A DNA stretch of 64,000 nt from the IMG/VR virus record IMGVR_UViG_3300042559_001930, one strand, 5' to 3'. Numbering within the stretch: position 1 is the first letter of the stretch; each line of letters starts with the position of its first letter. The DNA comes from an uncultured virus (IMG/VR IMGVR_UViG_3300042559_001930). Its lineage: Duplodnaviria; Heunggongvirae; Uroviricota; Caudoviricetes. The translations under genes and the position numbers were made by a program. The notes under the pieces are model-generated. The model was not told the origin of the DNA and did not search any database. It saw only the letters and a list, made by a program, of their open reading frames with translations. This document shows positions 3,593-64,000 of the stretch, one piece after another.

Positions 3593-3663
3593 GCAACCGC
3601 GTTGGAATCGAACCAACTATCTAACTCCCTTGTCGGGGTGTCCTGCCACTGGACTACCGGTTG
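3593..3663 (-). tRNA. Degenerate tRNA-like element (no assignable anticodon)
   Basis: Acceptor CAACCG/CGGTTG, D arm GTCC-AGTGGCA-GGAC, T arm GTTGG-TTCGATT-CCAAC; weak anticodon arm CCC-CGACAA-GGG. Confidence 0.6.
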
Positions 3664-57797: not shown

Positions 57798-57823
57798 GCC
57801 GAGGATAACACCTCGGCTTTTTT
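57798..57823 (+). terminator. Intrinsic terminator
   Basis: GCCGAGG-ATAACA-CCTCGGC-TTTTTT. Confidence 0.8.
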
Positions 57824-58251
57824 GTGTAAAAACTTGGGCTAACTAGGTAAAACCATCACAAAGATTGAATATTACTTAATTTTTTGCTTCGAAATGGCCC
57901 CTTATAGGACCAAAAAGGTAAATGATTTTCCTGAGCCTTCTCCAATACTCCCTCCGAGATTGATTGTGGGAAGAAAAAAAGAAAGGTGGGGTACCTTGAA
58001 ATTTACCTAGCAATAAGCGAGGAGGATAAGAGTATATTGCGCCAAGAAATTAATGAAACAATCGTAGGTATGTTTACTTATTGTTCTTTTGAACGGAATA
58101 AGGACATTTACCTACTGTTTTATGTGTAAATCCACACATTTCGGGCGCTATTTAGGGTCAAACCCCTTGCTACTACACGGTTCAAATAGGACAGTGATCT
58201 GATTGTGATCAGATAAGACTGTTTAATTCCGATGAATTAGCTCGGGATTAC

Positions 58252-58277
58252 ACGTCAAGCTGGACGTTAAACGTAGC
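58252..58277 (+). promoter_or_regulatory. Leader pseudoknot element, family PK copy 1 (divergent)
   Basis: ACGTC-AAGCTG-GACGT-TAAAC-GTAGC. Confidence 0.45.
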
Positions 58278-58302
58278 ATCAAACCCACATCAACTCAACG
58301 CC

Positions 58303-58494
58303 ATGCGTTATCAATTCCCCAACGTAGCTCCAGTCATCTGTGGCTTTGCAGTCCTCATTGGTATCGGTACGCAAGTAACCGTACACCAATTGGACAAAGC
58401 AACAGCACAGCAATGTGCGAACCACGACTGGCCCAAGGAAGCACACGATGTCCACATGGACTGGTGTGCTGCCAACAGCTACCCAACCAACTGA
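58303..58494 (+). CDS. Small early membrane protein
   Basis: TM segment followed by QCANHDWP...WC. Confidence 0.65.
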   Translation: MRYQFPNVAPVICGFAVLIGIGTQVTVHQLDKATAQQCANHDWPKEAHDVHMDWCAANSYPTN

Positions 58495-58558
58495 GTAACA
58501 GGCGTGATGCCGAGGGATCGAATCCCTCACTCAGTATTGCCTCCAGCGGAGATAGGCA
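58490..58558 (+). ncRNA. tRNA-elbow-like element, family TE copy 1
   Basis: ACTGAGT/ACTCAGT closing stem, GGC-GTGAT-GCC, GAGGG-ATCGAAT-CCCTC, then a TGCC..GGCA hairpin. Confidence 0.6.
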
Positions 58559-58566
58559 CCGCACAC

Positions 58567-58860
58567 ATGGAGATATCCATGGACCTGACAACAGGTTGGC
58601 AGAAGCATTCCAATGTACCTGGTGGTTATCACCTGGTGTACCACGACACCTGGATTGGTGAAGTATCCATTGTCACTGGACCGAAAGGTTCAGGGCTAAT
58701 GGCAGCTAACGATCCAGGTCAAGAACCCACTTACGAAGTGTGGTTCCCAGGAATGGTGAATCCAACCGGTCACTTAACCCTTGATGAGATCAAAGGAATC
58801 ATCAAGTACATGCGTCAACACGAGGAAGAACGCATGATGTATGCCGACGAAGACAACTGA
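58567..58860 (+). CDS. Early hypothetical protein
   Basis: ATG at 58567 (or 58579) after the TE element. Confidence 0.65.
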   Translation: MEISMDLTTGWQKHSNVPGGYHLVYHDTWIGEVSIVTGPKGSGLMAANDPGQEPTYEVWFPGMVNPTGHLTLDEIKGIIKYMRQHEEERMMYADEDN

Positions 58861-58921
58861 TCCGTCTAAGCGGGAGGCAGGGTGCAAACCCCTGCCCAGT
58901 TATTGCCACAATGCCGTGGCA
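58855..58921 (+). ncRNA. tRNA-elbow-like element, family TE copy 2
   Basis: AACTG/CAGTT closing stem, CCG..CGG hairpin, GGCAGGG-TGCAAAC-CCCTGCC, then a TGCCAC..GTGGCA hairpin. Confidence 0.6.
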
Positions 58922-58936
58922 TCTACACTACACAAC

Positions 58937-59110
58937 ATGGGTATCCGCAAAGGACTAGCCAATGCACTCATCTCAACAGCAGCAATGCTGGAGAGTGACA
59001 AATCTAAGGAGTATGTCAGCACCAAGCTGAATGAATACCGTATACGTGCAGCAGCACTGCTGATGCCTAACGATATGGCATTCGTCATTACTCCCAAGAC
59101 TGAACTCTGA
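58937..59110 (+). CDS. Early hypothetical protein
   Basis: ATG after a C/A-rich leader. Confidence 0.6.
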   Translation: MGIRKGLANALISTAAMLESDKSKEYVSTKLNEYRIRAAALLMPNDMAFVITPKTEL

Positions 59111-59160
59111 CTTCTGCACTAAGGGCTTACGGGCCTTTACTGCAGGACTCAACATCCTGT
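59108..59160 (+). promoter_or_regulatory. Bistable UNCG hairpin element, family SW copy 1
   Basis: TGAC-TTCTGCA..AAGGGCT-TACG-GGCCTTT..TGCAGGA-CTCA..TCCTGT. Confidence 0.6.
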
Positions 59161-59184
59161 CATCAACACTACCTCAATTCAACA

Positions 59185-59457
59185 GTGACAACACCTGCAC
59201 TAGTCTACAAACCATCCGCCGAACAACAGTACCGCGTCACATGGTATGGCGGCGAATCAACCCAGTTTCACTTTGAGAAGCTGTGGAATACATTCGACCC
59301 AGACACCGATGCCGAATGGCAAGAGTGGCTAGACCGTGACGTACGTACACTTGGCGGTGGTGTACCAACAAGTATGAAGGAGATGCTCATGGAAATGGAG
59401 GACTACTATCATTACTCCATTGACATGGAACTAGAGCGCAAGCTTCAACACATGTGA
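59185..59457 (+). CDS. Early hypothetical protein
   Basis: GTG start after a C/A-rich leader. Confidence 0.65.
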   Translation: MTTPALVYKPSAEQQYRVTWYGGESTQFHFEKLWNTFDPDTDAEWQEWLDRDVRTLGGGVPTSMKEMLMEMEDYYHYSIDMELERKLQHM

Positions 59458-59492
59458 TCCTTCTCAACACACTCAACTCAACTCAACTGATC

Positions 59493-59693
59493 ATGAAAGA
59501 CAACTACCTCTCTAACGCTGTGCTGGCCATTGTTATGGGCGTAGGAGCAGGCATGCTCTTATCCGTAGGAGCACAGAAGTTACTCAACAACTATCACGTC
59601 AAGCATTGCCCAGCGAAAGCAGGGCATCAACTGATATACATGCATAGCTTTCTAGGCGATGCATACTATTGCCTGGATAAGCGTACACTCTGA
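59493..59693 (+). CDS. Small early membrane protein
   Basis: TM segment plus a Cys pair. Confidence 0.65.
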   Translation: MKDNYLSNAVLAIVMGVGAGMLLSVGAQKLLNNYHVKHCPAKAGHQLIYMHSFLGDAYYCLDKRTL

Positions 59694-59743
59694 CGTTTGC
59701 ACTAAGGGCCTTCGGGCCCTTTCTGCAGACCTCATCGTCTGCA
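59691..59743 (+). promoter_or_regulatory. Bistable UNCG hairpin element, family SW copy 2
   Basis: TGAC-GTTTGCA..AAGGGCC-TTCG-GGCCCTT..TGCAGAC-CTCA..GTCTGCA. Confidence 0.6.
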
Positions 59744-59768
59744 CACACTCAACCTAATTACAGACTGA

Positions 59769-59966
59769 ATGAAACACACGGTCCGATTATCACCAGGGCG
59801 ATTCGTCCACCTAGATTCTTACCATGTGTCTCATGAGACTCGCTTTAGTAAGATCTGCGTGGTAGCCCTATCATTTATCATGTCCGCAATCACAGTATCT
59901 GCTGTGGTCGGCATTGATATCACCAACCCAACTCCTACTCAACACCATGACAACACTCAGCGCTAA
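59769..59966 (+). CDS. Small early membrane protein
   Basis: One TM segment. Confidence 0.55.
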   Translation: MKHTVRLSPGRFVHLDSYHVSHETRFSKICVVALSFIMSAITVSAVVGIDITNPTPTQHHDNTQR

Positions 59967-60288
59967 CACCAAACTTATCGAGGATCGCATTCAACAACTC
60001 TGCGAGACTCTCCAAGATAAGTTCTACAAACAGTACAACAACCCCGTAGCTTTCGAAGTTAAGCGCGGGGTTAAGTACTACAAGATCATCCATGTCTCTA
60101 GTCCTGGTACCAAGTATGAAGGCAGATCAGTCCATGCATTTGTCGCAAGACAGACAGGGACTGTGTATAAGCCTGCATCATGGAAGGCACCAGCGGAACA
60201 TGCACGGTACCAACTACTAGATGACCAATCATTTGAAACCTGCCTACACAATTGTGACTGGGCGGGTTCATACCTTTATATGAGGTAA
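59947..60288 (+). CDS. Conserved cyanophage-type hypothetical protein
   Basis: KYYKI...SVHAFV...TG.VYKPASWKAPA..ARY...DWAGSYLY. Confidence 0.75.
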   Translation: MTTLSANTKLIEDRIQQLCETLQDKFYKQYNNPVAFEVKRGVKYYKIIHVSSPGTKYEGRSVHAFVARQTGTVYKPASWKAPAEHARYQLLDDQSFETCLHNCDWAGSYLYMR

Positions 60289-60399
60289 GTATAGGGGTCA
60301 CCCCCTGACTCCCACCTGAACAGCCAGCACCAAAGTAATGGCTGTTTAGTTATTAAGATTTTTGATAAACAACGGTTATTAAGATTCCAAGTATTAGAT

Positions 60400-60427
60400 G
60401 GACCTGAGTATGTCCTTAAACTACTCA
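60400..60427 (+). promoter_or_regulatory. Leader pseudoknot element, family PK copy 2
   Basis: GGAC-CTGAGTAT-GTCC-TTAAAC-TACTCA. Confidence 0.65.
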
Positions 60428-60449
60428 CCATCCACTCCACTTGACTCCA

Positions 60450-60824
60450 ATGAAATCACGCATCTCCGTCCTTAAAGAAGACCAGATCTGGGAACTGCGT
60501 TGCAAAGGTTATCGCTACGATCTGATCGCTAGCATTGTCAACTGCAGTCCCATATCCATGACTAAGGTCCTCCGCAGGGTGAGGCAACGTCCTCCCCTCA
60601 AGGAAGACCCAATCAAACGTGGACGCTACCGTGGCTTCTTAAGTGATGCCCAGGTAAATGACATTCGTAACCGTGCTAAGTACAATGAATCCATTGGGTT
60701 TATTGCCAGGGCTTACGACATGACGCCAGCGGCCATCTATGCAATCGTAACGAACAAGACCTATAAGGAACCTTGTCGTGATGATGCATTCATCCCCAAC
60801 TTTACCAATAGACTCATGCGTTAG
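60450..60824 (+). CDS. Tandem-HTH DNA-binding protein
   Basis: IWELRCKGYRYDLIASIVNCS and LSDAQVNDIR...IARAYDMTPAAIYAIV. Confidence 0.7.
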   Translation: MKSRISVLKEDQIWELRCKGYRYDLIASIVNCSPISMTKVLRRVRQRPPLKEDPIKRGRYRGFLSDAQVNDIRNRAKYNESIGFIARAYDMTPAAIYAIVTNKTYKEPCRDDAFIPNFTNRLMR

Positions 60825-60842
60825 TACATAAGTACTACGTAT

Positions 60843-60870
60843 GGTCCTGAGTATGACCTTAAACTACTCA
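60843..60870 (+). promoter_or_regulatory. Leader pseudoknot element, family PK copy 3
   Basis: GGTC-CTGAGTAT-GACC-TTAAAC-TACTCA. Confidence 0.65.
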
Positions 60871-60892
60871 CCGTTCCAACTCAATTCAAACC

Positions 60893-61099
60893 ATGAGAGA
60901 CCTTGCATTCATTGATGAGCAACGTAATGCAGACTTGCTTGATGCCATGGCAGACATTGCCTATGAGCAGGAGCAAGCCATGCGTGAGTCCAATCAATCT
61001 GATTGGGATGGCATTGACGAGATCTCTGTAGAGGAACGTTATGCCTGCGATCATTACAATGAAAGGTTTGCTTACCCATCCATTTACCACGGTGACTGA
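60893..61099 (+). CDS. Acidic early protein
   Basis: ATG after the PK element and a C/A-rich leader. Confidence 0.65.
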   Translation: MRDLAFIDEQRNADLLDAMADIAYEQEQAMRESNQSDWDGIDEISVEERYACDHYNERFAYPSIYHGD

Positions 61100-61101
61100 C
61101 C

Positions 61102-61560
61102 ATGACTAAAGCAACTCAACGTACTCAAGTGTGGGATGAGGATCCAGTGATCCTCTTCATCACACTCATTTCAATCTCAATCACACTCATCGGAGATCTC
61201 ATCTCATGTCTCTTCAACCTGAACAACTGCTCATCGCAGACGCACTCGGCTACGAACCCTTCGACCAAGAAGAAGGTGAGCAGCAGTTCCAAGCAGAGAC
61301 AGACTTCCAGGACGCACCCAAAGGCGCCATCGCCTGCACTGGTAACGTCTACAGAACCAAGCGAGGAGTCCTCAGGTGCTACTGGATCCCAGCCGGTGGC
61401 AACTACTCAGCCCAGGACAAGGAGGATCTCGAAGGATGGTACGACATCCCAAGCAACGAAGACATCGAGACGTGGACGTTCGACAGTTGCTGTCCTACCC
61501 CAGCAGGAGATGAAGTCGAACCAGACCACCCAGATTCCTGGCTTAGGATTCTCGGCTTGA
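61102..61560 (+). CDS. TM plus Ser/Thr/Lys-rich disordered protein (overlaps the next gene)
   Basis: Starts 2 nt after the upstream stop. Confidence 0.45.
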   Translation: MTKATQRTQVWDEDPVILFITLISISITLIGDLISCLFNLNNCSSQTHSATNPSTKKKVSSSSKQRQTSRTHPKAPSPALVTSTEPSEESSGATGSQPVATTQPRTRRISKDGTTSQATKTSRRGRSTVAVLPQQEMKSNQTTQIPGLGFSA

Positions 61561-61616
61561 TCCAACCTATCTCACATAACACTAGCGTTATGATGACATT
61601 CGCTATTCGCGAATAG
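61206..61616 (+). CDS. Acidic phage protein
   Basis: TPAGDEVEPDHPDSWLRILGLI motif. Confidence 0.65.
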   Translation: MSLQPEQLLIADALGYEPFDQEEGEQQFQAETDFQDAPKGAIACTGNVYRTKRGVLRCYWIPAGGNYSAQDKEDLEGWYDIPSNEDIETWTFDSCCPTPAGDEVEPDHPDSWLRILGLIQPISHNTSVMMTFAIRE

Positions 61617-61776
61617 AGAATATGATTTCAACCATGTGCACTACACTCCTGTGCCTGGCTCAATACTTTGGGTCGGGCACAACATATACACAGTCATACA
61701 ATGCAGTTGCATTCAAAGTCCAAGATACTTTTTACTTCTGTACCAAGGCATCTGGACTATATAACTGCGTAACTAA

Positions 61777-62208
61777 TCAAGGTCGATACCACTGAGGATT
61801 CGACTGTTGATAATTGTATATAGTCTCTTCTCTTAGCTGTTGCGCAGGTGAGAGAGGAGACATCACATCATAAGTATCCCCGCCAGGCCCAAGGATTGCA
61901 TTACTTTGTTGCATCACTTGAGGCTTGGCACCAAACCTAAATCTTGCTTCGATTGACGGATCGTTTACTCCGACATTCAAGCCAAAGTTATTACCCATTA
62001 CACCAAATTGTCCAGTCATTGGATTCAAGTTGACTGATCCAGTATCATCTTTGAATTCCATTGACCCACGATTAAATAATGAGCCAAATACATTGCCTAA
62101 CTGCTGCACATCCGCAGGTGCAGACGGGTTATTAAACTGCGTTGACAACAACGTATCTTTTAACGCAGGGCCCCAAGCACCTGCTAAGCGTGTACCAAAG
62201 TTAGGCAT
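61777..62208 (-). CDS. Hypothetical protein inverted within the early region
   Basis: Clean 143-aa ORF, Gly/Asn/Pro-rich. Confidence 0.6.
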   Translation of the reverse strand: MPNFGTRLAGAWGPALKDTLLSTQFNNPSAPADVQQLGNVFGSLFNRGSMEFKDDTGSVNLNPMTGQFGVMGNNFGLNVGVNDPSIEARFRFGAKPQVMQQSNAILGPGGDTYDVMSPLSPAQQLREETIYNYQQSNPQWYRP

Positions 62209-62358
62209 CAATCTAAAGTTGTTTTTACAATAATAAGACAGGGGTATTGCCAGATAACTACTGGCCTACCCCCCACACCCCCACTAGAAGTACCAGAGGC
62301 ACACTTTAATCTATAAGAGTTACCTCTGTACTGCACACCATTCACTCACTTACAAACC

Positions 62359-62808
62359 ATGACTAAGCACTACTCCTTCACAGAGACAGACATCACCTTC
62401 ATCCATGATGCTCTCTGCTCACTAGCAGAAGTACTCACTGCAGATGATGTGGTACACCAGCATAAAGACTTGGTTATTGCCAGGCTTGCTGAGGTAACTG
62501 ACATCATTGATTCTCAGATCAATGCTCCGTTTAAACCTACATCATTCCTCAATGAATACTACAAGCTTGCTGAAGTTCTCGAAGAACTGAAAGCTATCTC
62601 TCAACGTGAGAGCAAGCGTCACGAAGTGGATCAACATCTCACTCCCTCCATGCTTGCCATGGTGGATGATGAAATTATCCCCATGCTTGAGAACGAGATG
62701 GACTACGACCCATCAGATGAAGACCTTGGCTATGGCGGTGAGCCGCCTATGACAGCAGACGAAATGCACACAGCTGCATGGCGTCAGCACCAGGAGCTTC
62801 ACAGCTAA
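62359..62808 (+). CDS. Acidic early protein
   Basis: C/A-rich leader; GEPPMTADEMH..AW. Confidence 0.7.
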   Translation: MTKHYSFTETDITFIHDALCSLAEVLTADDVVHQHKDLVIARLAEVTDIIDSQINAPFKPTSFLNEYYKLAEVLEELKAISQRESKRHEVDQHLTPSMLAMVDDEIIPMLENEMDYDPSDEDLGYGGEPPMTADEMHTAAWRQHQELHS

Positions 62809-62913
62809 CAGCCCTACCGCAAGGTTAAGGAAACATTAAGACCATTGGTCATGGCTTGACTGCCCTGGTAGACTTGCCATGACCACACTCAACTCACACT
62901 ACGTACCAATCAA

Positions 62914-63117
62914 ATGTCTGACAGCTTGCGCATCCCAGACTCAATTGATCTTCAACGACTCCAAGCTATGCAGCTTGTAGCCAAGATGAAAGAATCAGCT
63001 GACAAACATGGTATTGGTTTCATCGGGGGCTTTGTTGCCCCCGATGGACAAAAGTTCATCATGACAAATATGGATGATGATGACACTCAAGCACTCCTAC
63101 CTGACAACCTGAAATGA
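62914..63117 (+). CDS. Early hypothetical protein
   Basis: Operon member. Confidence 0.65.
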   Translation: MSDSLRIPDSIDLQRLQAMQLVAKMKESADKHGIGFIGGFVAPDGQKFIMTNMDDDDTQALLPDNLK

Positions 63118-63413
63118 ACACGACTCACAAATTGATGATCGACGGAATCATTGATACCTTCAACTTTGAAAAAGTTCATGTTGCCATGACAGTACTTGAC
63201 TGGCAATGGGCATCAAGAGAAGGTAGGGGTTATGCAGTACCAACAATTGCAGAACTCAAAGCAAAGGCCTATTACTTACTACAAGAATCCATTACAGAAA
63301 CATGTGTTTCATCTGGTGGATTTGAAGCTAAGTATCAGCCTGCAGACAATAGCGATTCGGAGTATTTCGAATTGAAATTCATTCTTTGCCACGAGGATTC
63401 CTACGATGACTGA
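63114..63413 (+). CDS. Phage hypothetical protein
   Basis: FNFEKVH..M..LDWQW...VPT...SSGGF. Confidence 0.7.
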   Translation: MNTTHKLMIDGIIDTFNFEKVHVAMTVLDWQWASREGRGYAVPTIAELKAKAYYLLQESITETCVSSGGFEAKYQPADNSDSEYFELKFILCHEDSYDD

Positions 63414-63603
63414 CAAGTCACCTATCAACTTTGACAAGACAATTGCTGGATTCAATGTCACTGAACATGGAATCAAATCGTTTACTAAGTCGATTAAACT
63501 TGGGCCATTCCGGGTAACACTTAACGCTAGAGAATCTGGTGTACGTGGATCTATCTCATTACCTGGCACAGGCTTGAGTAAACGCAACATCAAGTTGTTC
63601 TGA
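63406..63603 (+). CDS. DUF4236-like protein
   Basis: KSIKLGPFRVTLN...SLPGTGLS. Confidence 0.65.
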   Translation: MTDKSPINFDKTIAGFNVTEHGIKSFTKSIKLGPFRVTLNARESGVRGSISLPGTGLSKRNIKLF

Positions 63604-63608
63604 TCCAA

Positions 63609-63636
63609 GGACCTGGGATGTCCTTAAACTCATCCA
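63609..63636 (+). promoter_or_regulatory. Leader pseudoknot element, family PK copy 4
   Basis: GGAC-CTGGGAT-GTCC-TTAAAC-TCATCCA. Confidence 0.55.
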
Positions 63637-63656
63637 CTCCACCTCAACATAATCTC

Positions 63657-63848
63657 ATGAACAGCACTGAACTACACGCCATGATTGCCCGCATGGACAG
63701 CTATGGCGGATCATTCGTCTCATCTATTGCACAAGCATTGCGCTTTGCTGATCCAACGAATCGGCAGCGTTTGCTTGATGCATTCCCTGACCTCGTCCAA
63801 CAGTATGGACCTGAAGGCCGGTTTGCCAAAGCCAAGCAACTCACATAG
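63657..63848 (+). CDS. Small phage protein
   Basis: YGGSFV..IA.A...AD..N..RL..AFP. Confidence 0.7.
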   Translation: MNSTELHAMIARMDSYGGSFVSSIAQALRFADPTNRQRLLDAFPDLVQQYGPEGRFAKAKQLT

Positions 63849-63857
63849 GTGTAACTC

Positions 63858-64000
63858 ATGATTGTTTTGTTAATCGAAGACACATTCATTGATGGCAACG
63901 ATGTCACAGTTACAGCAGTGGTTGACGACATGCGTCTCATCCATCGGTCAACTTACCTTGACCCTGAAGAATATGCTCCTGCGTTATGCAGGGCTAGCTT
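63858..64000 (+). CDS. Hypothetical protein (3'-truncated)
   Basis: Open from ATG 63858 to the window end. Confidence 0.55.
   Translation, partial: MIVLLIEDTFIDGNDVTVTAVVDDMRLIHRSTYLDPEEYAPALCRAS

Follow-up and report, generated by a model that had tools for sequence, protein, structure and literature searches.

The gaps between the small early genes of an uncultured tailed phage from a lake (IMG/VR record IMGVR_UViG_3300042559_001930), analysed here as a window of 64,000 nucleotides, carry three families of structured RNA elements: tRNA-like three-way junctions (TE), pseudoknots (PK) and bistable hairpins (SW). Each family keeps its helices through compensatory base changes in related viruses, and TE and SW enclose the stop codon of the upstream gene in their closing helix. 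The reading we find best supported is that these modules process and stabilise the early message, a view that we hold tentatively and would place just short of probable. As to the origin of the DNA, Synechococcus phage S-EIVl is the sole match among 50,697 phage records for positions 57800-64000 (72.6% identity over 21% of the query), and the remaining window codes for terminase, major head protein, tail spike, primase and endolysins; taken together, these identify the window as a cyanophage of the S-EIVl lineage.

The early region covers 58.25-63.7 kb, small plus-strand genes running from 58.25 kb. Their products include DUF7717, DUF4236 and a weak helix-turn-helix match, the rest having no known family. 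Two TE, two SW and three clear PK copies were found here, with a fourth, marginal PK at 58252, and every element of the window lies on the plus strand. Reading and folding the spacers bore out the order given by a first-pass annotation of this DNA: the PK-like element, a gene at 58303-58494, TE1, a gene ending at 58860, TE2, a gene at 58937-59110, SW1, two genes, SW2 and then PK1 to PK3. The individual elements are as follows.

58252-58277, plus strand: PK-like element ahead of the first early gene; a 5-bp hairpin (ACGUC/GACGU) precedes UAAAC, and no more than four stem-2 pairs can form.
58490-58535, plus strand: TE1 (subtype b), a three-way junction; helix P1 is ACUGAGU/ACUCAGU, with the stop codon TGA (58492-58494) within it.
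58855-58901, plus strand: TE2 (subtype a); P1 AACUG/CAGUU with the stop codon TGA (58858-58860), P2 UCCG-UCUAAG-CGGG, and a 7-bp P3 with loop UGCAAAC.
58904-58921, plus strand: hairpin P4, UGCCAC/GUGGCA, two bases 3' of TE2; a leader poor in G then runs to the ATG at 58937.
59108-59160, plus strand: SW1; UGA (59108-59110) pairs with UCA, lower stem UUCUGCA/UGCAGGA plus an upper hairpin, alternative helix GCAGGA/UCCUGU.
59691-59742, plus strand: SW2; UGA (59691-59693) pairs with UCA, lower stem GUUUGCA/UGCAGAC, upper stem with a UUCG loop, alternative helix GCAGAC/GUCUGC.
60400-60427, plus strand: PK1, H-type pseudoknot; stem 1 (S1) GGAC/GUCC, loop L1 C, stem 2 (S2) UGAGUA/UACUCA, L2 U, L3 UUAAAC; ATG at 60450, 22 nt 3' of it.
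60843-60870, plus strand: PK2; S1 GGUC/GACC (compensatory relative to PK1), loop and tail as in PK1; TAG 18 nt upstream and ATG 60893, 22 nt downstream.
63609-63636, plus strand: PK3; S1 GGAC/GUCC, loop UGGGAU pairing with AUCCA as a covarying stem 2; 5 nt 3' of the TGA at 63601-63603, with ATG 63657 located 20 nt downstream.

G-U pairs are far commoner than A-C pairs in the three alignments (102:4, 41:10 and 23:2), with every copy on the sense strand, which argues that TE, PK and SW are genuine, strand-specific folds of RNA; the upkeep of their helices through compensatory changes, with G-U pairs restricted to one strand, likewise indicates that selection acts on the RNA fold itself. The compensatory changes that the first-pass annotation had noticed between copies were confirmed, relatives adding many times more of them, and the family-by-family searches of viral contigs that it had suggested found TE, PK and SW each recurring in many uncultured viruses. 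Its observation that the TGA stop lies inside the closing helix is correct for both TE and both SW copies.

The TE covariance model (R2), built from a 60-sequence alignment, gave 71 hits (58 distinct) at 25 loci. It finds two copies in the whole window, TE2 at 90.1 bits and TE1 at 44.5 bits, the latter with a fold z of -3.46. The inner arms of TE1 are a small hairpin, GGC-GUGAU-GCC, and a T-arm-like GAGGG-AUCGAAU-CCCUC, whose stem is replaced by the compensatory GGGGG/CCCCC in an orthologue (G003). A 17-nt core of the family is present in 74 viral stretches, and all distinct copies but two have the full architecture. In the alignment 98.6% of the cells are paired and both sides have changed at 12 of the 16 pairs, a level of pairing reached by none of 500 shuffles and approached by no slid register; RNAalifold independently recovers the junction.

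Resemblance to tRNA is clearest among the relatives of the window copies. Divergent members found with R2 include four-arm cloverleaf forms, several relatives carry the canonical tRNA T-arm GGGGTTCGATTCCCC or CCGGGTTCAATTCCCGG, and some have T-loops UUCGAUU or UUCAAUU inside GG..CC, which is the tRNA T-arm motif. The motif of the GGTTCRANYCC type with which mitochondrial t-elements have been found occurs as GGGGTTCGA(T/C)TCCCC at L267:17160, L252:365 and L265:232, and as CCGGGTTCAATTCCCGG at L263:1950; in the window copies the T-loops have diverged to AUCGAAU and UGCAAAC. Helix lengths of P1 and the T-arm trade off, at 5+7 bp in subtype a and 7+5 bp in subtype b, which would keep a constant 12-bp acceptor/T stack. 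At 51 of 59 loci the TGA within P1 ends an upstream open reading frame (ORF) no shorter than 40 codons, compared with 6 and 9 of 59 for the other two frames. Directly after P1 the bases A, U and U are 90-100% conserved, hairpin P4 follows in at least three interchangeable types, and the distance from TGA to ATG is 78-83 nt. Early regions often open at their 5' end with a series of four to seven elements at intervals of about 250-300 nt, and the family appears confined to the S-EIVl lineage.

Two further observations concern TE. Between 58536 and 58581 the linker AUU that follows TE1 leads into a conserved GCCUCCAGCGGAGAUAGGCACCGCAC element with two covarying helices and then into a hairpin, CAUGGA/UCCAUG. 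Viral copies of the GCCUCCAGCGGAGAUAGGCACCGCAC element covary as GCCY/RGGC and as GCGG/CCGC versus GUGG/CCAC versus GCAG/CUGC, and both helices are difficult to place in a single classical pseudoknot; the hairpin sequesters GGAG and the ATG at 58579 and resembles a separate translational control unit. Far from the early region, at 3593-3663 on the minus strand, ARAGORN calls an undetermined tRNA with a 2-base "anticodon", which may be another tRNA-like element.

For PK, a covariance model (R1) run with filters off over all 64 kb scores PK1 at 49.3, PK2 at 51.0 and PK3 at 27.8 bits, and these are the only clear copies. The first-pass annotation had placed PK at four sites; those at 60400, 60843 and 63609 stand, while the one at 58252 is marginal (10.6 bits, E 1.1), folds no better than shuffles (z 0.64) and is an unconfirmed member. 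The variant represented by PK3 is shared with five other contigs. S-EIVl-like contigs, together with two T4-like cyanophages, yielded 92 copies to the model, 81 of them distinct. S1 is paired in 100% of the distinct copies, its outer pair being CG in 40, GC in 29, AU in 6, UA in 5 and GU in 1, and another pair UA in 52 and AU in 29. S2, which was not in the search model, is 90.9% paired, with both-sided changes at five of six pairs, and exists, for example, as UGAGUA/UACUCA, UGAGCA/UGCUCA, UAAGCA/UGCUUA, UGGGCA/UGCCCA, UGGACA/UGUCCA, UGGUCA/UGACCA and CAAGCA/UGCUUG. Judged from this covariation, PK is a true H-type pseudoknot. Conservation sets in 4 nt ahead of stem 1 and ceases where stem 2 ends.

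The position of PK relative to genes is regular in the cyanophage set. Past stem 2, 78 of 81 copies have a start codon at 10-35 nt (mode 20-22). A stop codon precedes 49 of the 81 by no more than 15 nt, and the spacing from stop to S1 is exactly 5 nt in 29; the type of stop is unbiased (TGA 21, TAA 21, TAG 7). All six copies of S-EIVl occupy gaps of 55-60 nt between co-directional genes, genomes carry one to seven copies, and in the five genomes checked these are on one strand only. In G002 (L153:18045-18910) and in KJ410740 (30478-29657) a variant ending in UAAACUGCUUUAACAC stands directly before the gene of the single-stranded DNA-binding protein (SSB).

Beyond cyanophages, the PK core pattern matches 76 viral stretches from very different phages, many of them AT-rich and with Shine-Dalgarno leaders. 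Among 59 loci in unrelated phages, stem 1 starts 4-13 nt after a same-strand ORF in 24, and eleven loci are tight upstream only and eleven downstream only; the genes downstream are of every kind, late scaffolding genes included. One copy (L129) abuts or precedes a tRNA gene. In a 4-kb viral contig (L078:340-450) four PK-like units follow an ORF head to tail, and in one of them a G-to-A change in the loop is matched by C-to-U in the tail. A low-GC phage (G004, L154:4700-6320) repeats a cassette of a structure, TTTTATTTTTTCGTGAGAAAT, a TGTTATAGA promoter and a ribosome-binding site, the structure being either PK or an ordinary terminator hairpin followed by TTTTATTTTTT, such that PK takes the slot of the terminator. 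A PK-like site of coliphage Bp7, which keeps loop and tail and has lost stem 1, was excluded from the count. In bacterial genomes, 40 of 46 exact matches to the core lack stem 1 and tail; those inspected are coding, several encoding PEYDLK, and the exact core there is for the most part coincidental. Stem 1 and tail are present in about six of the 46, with one more borderline. One PK-like site with a complete stem 1, between nusG and rplK of an Eubacteriales metagenome-assembled genome (L164:1497-1530), is possibly a chance match (about 0.6 expected).

Three other functions were considered for PK and dropped. A T7-type promoter was suggested by the resemblance of UUAAACUGCUCACUAUA to promoters of this type; the idea was given up because the PK helices covary, with G-U pairs, and because the polymerase gene was not found, although the search for PF00940 in S-EIVl and four PK-bearing contigs drew no match in control genomes either. 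A sigma-70 promoter is contradicted by the lack of a conserved -35 upstream of PK and by promoter-like sites being rarer than in shuffles, and a read-through or frameshift signal by the mixed stop types and by frames that are not consistently open past the stop.

SW1 and SW2 fold with z values of -3.95 and -5.53, and the SW pattern occurs twice in the window compared with no occurrence in 100 shuffles. It matches 40 viral stretches, of which 26 are genuine members; the family appears confined to the S-EIVl lineage. The lower stem together with UGA/UCA is paired in 97% of the cells. In all 26 members the UGCAGNN strand can pair with either of two partners, one 2-3 nt after the stop (7 bp) and one downstream (5-7 bp), and the variable bases fall into five types, in each of which both partners show the compensating change, a pattern by which SW is read as a three-strand switch. 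Since the upstream partner lies under a ribosome that sits on the stop codon, such a ribosome would be expected to favour the downstream helix.

Genes follow the elements across leaders that, as first described, are poor in G: the 25 nt before 17 putative starts contain 8.7% G versus 20.9% regionally. The absence of a terminator U tract was likewise upheld, sequence reading finding no T-run 3' of any window element and a terminator scan nothing at these sites.

The elements also behave as modules. Behind orthologous genes, SW elements of the window stand in places that S-EIVl fills with PK or a plain hairpin. Over 55 TE loci, mean identity is 79% in the 57-nt core and 27% and 26%, which is background, in the 120-nt flanks, by a crude measure of ungapped identities; among the 1485 pairs of loci, 14 share the upstream flank only, 14 the downstream flank only and 8 both. 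In one pair (L005 and L007) identity is 97% on the upstream side, 98% across the TE core and 24% on the downstream side. Mosaic flanks, unrelated neighbouring genes and one-sided breaks in similarity fit the earlier suggestion that the repeats serve as recombination points, and the same 30-60-nt modules standing between unrelated genes would also serve as joints for homologous recombination.

In the mechanism that we propose, portable cis-acting RNA modules in the gaps between genes would punctuate the early operon, defining segments of mRNA and protecting them. TE would be a tRNA mimic, its acceptor-like helix stacked on the T-arm and the upstream UGA in the 5' strand of the acceptor. Host RNase Z and/or RNase P could cut here, most likely after the unpaired A that follows P1 and before UU, a site that would best suit RNase Z; such a cut would leave the upstream message with a stable tRNA-like 3' end, while the downstream message would begin two bases before P4 and have a P4-capped 5' end. 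PK, as a Watson-Crick form of the coremin fold known from plant RNA viruses, may be a one-way roadblock to RNase J, 5'-end-dependent RNase E and ribosomes, and decay begun upstream would halt there, a little short of the G-poor leader and the start codon of the gene that follows. In both SW and TE, a ribosome that terminates has to open the closing helix. In SW, whose middle strand would pair with the strand 2-3 nt past the stop or with the downstream strand, a ribosome on the stop would flip the switch. All the enzymatic steps are ones that we infer. The claim in its full form, that a bacterial virus runs its early operon on tRNA punctuation by mimics cut by RNase Z/P and on a coremin roadblock, with the coremin fold a barrier that works across kingdoms whatever the enzyme, bacterial RNase J or 5'-end-dependent RNase E included, and with an SW switch tying the fate of each segment to translation of the preceding gene, is possible but in our judgement doubtful. 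A processing and stabilisation system was already the suggestion of the first-pass annotation; structured families, tRNA mimicry and the likeness to coremin speak for it, while the restriction to early genes has to be given up for PK, which is portable across phages of several phyla.

Several observations weigh against processing and stabilisation. No RNase Z-like or CCA-adding gene was found in any of five related genomes, and host enzymes would therefore be needed. As a tRNA gene TE is not recognised: Rfam, RF00005 included, gives no match at the gathering threshold or at E up to 10, ARAGORN with default settings calls no tRNA at TE (with lowered thresholds the region gives scattered noise only), and an Rfam scan of one TE relative returned sub-threshold T-arm matches to tmRNA and YrlA only. 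A cut by RNase P 5' of P1 would cost the upstream gene its stop codon, which is apparently harmful, although the plant mitochondrial t-elements of nad6 and ccmC do remove stop codons in this way (PMC1920247). In the window, PKs are followed by G-poor unstructured leaders and no conserved second hairpin, whereas coremin needs a second hairpin after the spacer to stall Xrn1 (PMC6546385, PMC10321173). Finally, a T-rich tract lies directly 3' of PK in 18 of 58 diverse viral loci compared with 7% of random positions, and one copy (L174) sits at the 3' end of a gene with a convergent neighbour, which together suggest a 3'-end or terminator role rather than 5'-end protection.

Translational coupling or shunting is the rival that survives best, although we consider it unlikely. 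Under it, a terminating ribosome would be handed across the fold to a start without Shine-Dalgarno sequence 12-25 nt beyond, SW reporting on translation upstream. The stop inside TE P1 and inside the outer SW stem, the fixed 5-nt distance from stop to S1 in over a third of PK copies, the G-poor leaders lacking a Shine-Dalgarno sequence and the two exclusive SW helices, one of which a terminating ribosome necessarily breaks, all agree with coupling, as does the finding that coremin blocks scanning ribosomes, as well as Xrn1, and promotes frameshifting in eukaryotic systems (PMC6546385, PMC10321173). It does not explain PK1 at 60400, which has no upstream gene within 110 nt, the 32 of 81 PKs without a stop within 15 nt, or the copies before a tRNA gene (L129) and at the end of a transcription unit (L174); 78-83 nt from TGA to ATG at TE is moreover long for re-initiation, and no re-initiation signal is conserved.

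The remaining explanations are improbable. PK could be an operator or aptamer, on which phage SSB would nucleate and coat the leader, as in T4 gene 32, or a small ligand would bind at the junction, in either case repressing genes jointly. The variant in front of the SSB gene in S-EIVl and its close relative G002 recalls the autoregulatory knot of T4 gene 32, and the PK layout recalls both this knot and preQ1-I; conserved unpaired bases (L1 C, L2 U, AAAC) and a 3' flank depleted of G even in unrelated phages point the same way. However, 35 tested downstream genes are unrelated (kinase, helicase, HNH nuclease, head scaffolding proteins and many of unknown function), one motif spans phages of many phyla with different SSB families, no Rfam riboswitch matches, and PK is swapped for SW or a plain hairpin at orthologous junctions.

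Similarly slim is the chance that the elements are transcription terminators or attenuators setting the polarity of the early region. The T-rich tracts of the diverse viral loci and the terminator slot that PK takes in G004 would be explained, and SW, with its two exclusive helices, looks like an attenuator; yet T-runs are absent at all elements both in the window and in the S-EIVl lineage, the scan finds a terminator at none of them, and promoter-like sites number 6 against 10.8 expected, leaving downstream genes untranscribed under a terminator reading. It is just as improbable that the elements serve mainly as joints for recombination or as selfish mobile cassettes with incidental folds, or that they are decoys for host defences directed at tRNA or RNA: mosaic TE flanks, the spread of PK over unrelated phages and the tandem array in L078, which recalls RNA antitoxin repeats, are set against helices whose pairing, on a single strand, is upheld by compensatory changes and G-U pairs, and against the lack of any transposase, integrase or toxin gene beside the elements.

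Two other structured features of the early region lie among the elements.

60293-60398, plus strand: long spacer before PK1 with two hairpins (the second terminator-like, without a clean T-run) and a direct repeat GTTATTAAGATT at 60349-60360 and 60375-60386.
61650-61681, plus strand: hairpin UGUGCCUGGCUCAA-UACU-UUGGGUCGGGCACA of 14 bp, inside or after a small ORF (61622-61795) and adjoining a minus-strand ORF.

The spacer has a fold z of -4.29 and, with its hairpins and repeat ahead of PK1, may be a unit boundary with a promoter or operator. The hairpin, described at first as 13 bp, is present, with 14 pairs when G-U is counted; its region folds with z -5.34 and no RNA family was found for it. 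Within 61560-62360 the run of plus-strand early genes is broken by the minus-strand ORF at 61777-62211 (144 aa, no family), which is flanked by this hairpin and by another strong one at 62241-62272 and may be an inserted gene. Elsewhere, a 10-bp hairpin GGUCAUGGCU...UGCCAUGACC precedes the gene at 62914 (62846-62885), and the only clean intrinsic terminator nearby (57798-57817; GCCGAGG...CCTCGGC, then TTTTTTGTGT) stands 3' of a 68-aa plus-strand ORF, just before the non-coding stretch leading into the early genes.

The first-pass annotation had allowed that all three might be described Rfam families; none is in Rfam 15, scans of the window and of 71-nt and 466-nt slices giving noise only at E up to 10 for TE, PK and SW and no match to preQ1, SAM-II, pistol, hammerhead or other riboswitch and ribozyme models. 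A 2023 catalogue of about 10,000 viral structured RNA candidates (PMC10690425) has no match in its searchable supplements, files 1, 2 and 4 excepted, and may hold these families unnamed. Within the literature searched, no paper joins "coremin motif" with "phage", element sequence strings retrieve primers only, the S-EIV1 papers as listed include none on RNA elements, and the accessible parts of two 2026 preprints on non-coding mining do not mention the motifs. As far as these searches reach, PK appears to be unpublished for phages.

The three RNA families would be new to the catalogues, and the natural variants of each, numbering dozens to hundreds, would map the bases that must pair. If the processing and stabilisation reading is true, phages divide their long messages into segments and stabilise them by means of tRNA mimics and a 29-nt knot, in addition to RNase III hairpins. 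The link to coremin would make it testable whether bacteria have exonuclease-resistant RNAs, and against which enzyme. Being small, portable and independent of the host in sequence, the modules would be candidate insulators and stabilisers for synthetic operons, especially in cyanobacteria, and they could account for the shuffling of small early genes among related phages.

Of the systems to which the elements can be compared, the coremin motif, also called xrRNA-C and carried by beny-, cucumo- and other plant RNA viruses (PMC6546385, PMC10520033, PMC10321173), is the one closest to PK in sequence. It is printed as GUCCGAAGACGUUAAACUAC (PMC10520033), and by mutagenesis it depends on a C-G pair that closes the loop, on a pyrimidine at the first loop position, on the A-run and on CUA (PMC6546385, PMC10321173). 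PK has GUCC...GAC(G)UUAAACUAC and retains all of these essential positions: S1 is NGWC/GWCN in 81 of 81 distinct copies, with an invariant C-G top pair followed by C, and the spacer is UUAAACUAC in PK1 and PK2 and UUAAACUCA in PK3, with a family consensus of UUAAACU(G/A)C. PK2 thus reads GUCC-loop-GACC-UUAAACUAC where the printed motif reads GUCC-GAA-GACG-UUAAACUAC, and both have a loop-to-spacer pseudoknot and tandem copies. The differences are that the PK loop has 8 nt (C, six bases and U; CUGAGUAU) and is not a YGAD tetraloop, that stem 2 is a full Watson-Crick helix of 5-6 bp, and that PK lies between genes, not in a 3' UTR (untranslated region), of DNA phages of bacteria, hosts without Xrn1. 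Coremin variants with longer loops and with Watson-Crick pairing are still resistant (PMC6546385, PMC10520033, PMC10321173).

For TE, the closest described analogue is the t-element of plant mitochondria, a non-canonical tRNA-like fold at which RNase Z/P make mRNA ends, which in nad6 and ccmC fall inside the reading frames, and which has been sought by its T-arm motif (PMC1920247). TE shares the non-canonical fold with a T-arm and the placement in polycistronic RNA at mRNA boundaries, and, like the nad6 and ccmC elements, it overlaps the end of a reading frame. It differs in belonging to a phage, in its two to seven copies per early region, in its own sequence (UCCGUCWAAGCGGG, loop UGCAAAC), in the stop codon within the acceptor-like strand, in the fixed AUU and hairpin P4 that follow, and in that cleavage is putative. 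The mascRNA of MALAT1 is a further analogue. Structured spacers between early cistrons that lack a T-run are also familiar from the RNase III processing hairpins of the T7 early region and from intercistronic stabiliser hairpins; SW resembles the former as a 16-17-bp hairpin with an internal loop and differs in its second, exclusive helix and in the stop codon within its stem. The promoter-early stem-loop (PeSL) cassettes of T4-type phages, finally, are short, conserved intergenic modules between small early genes, with the flanking genes shuffled; the elements described here have no recognisable promoter and, in contrast, are conserved as RNA folds.

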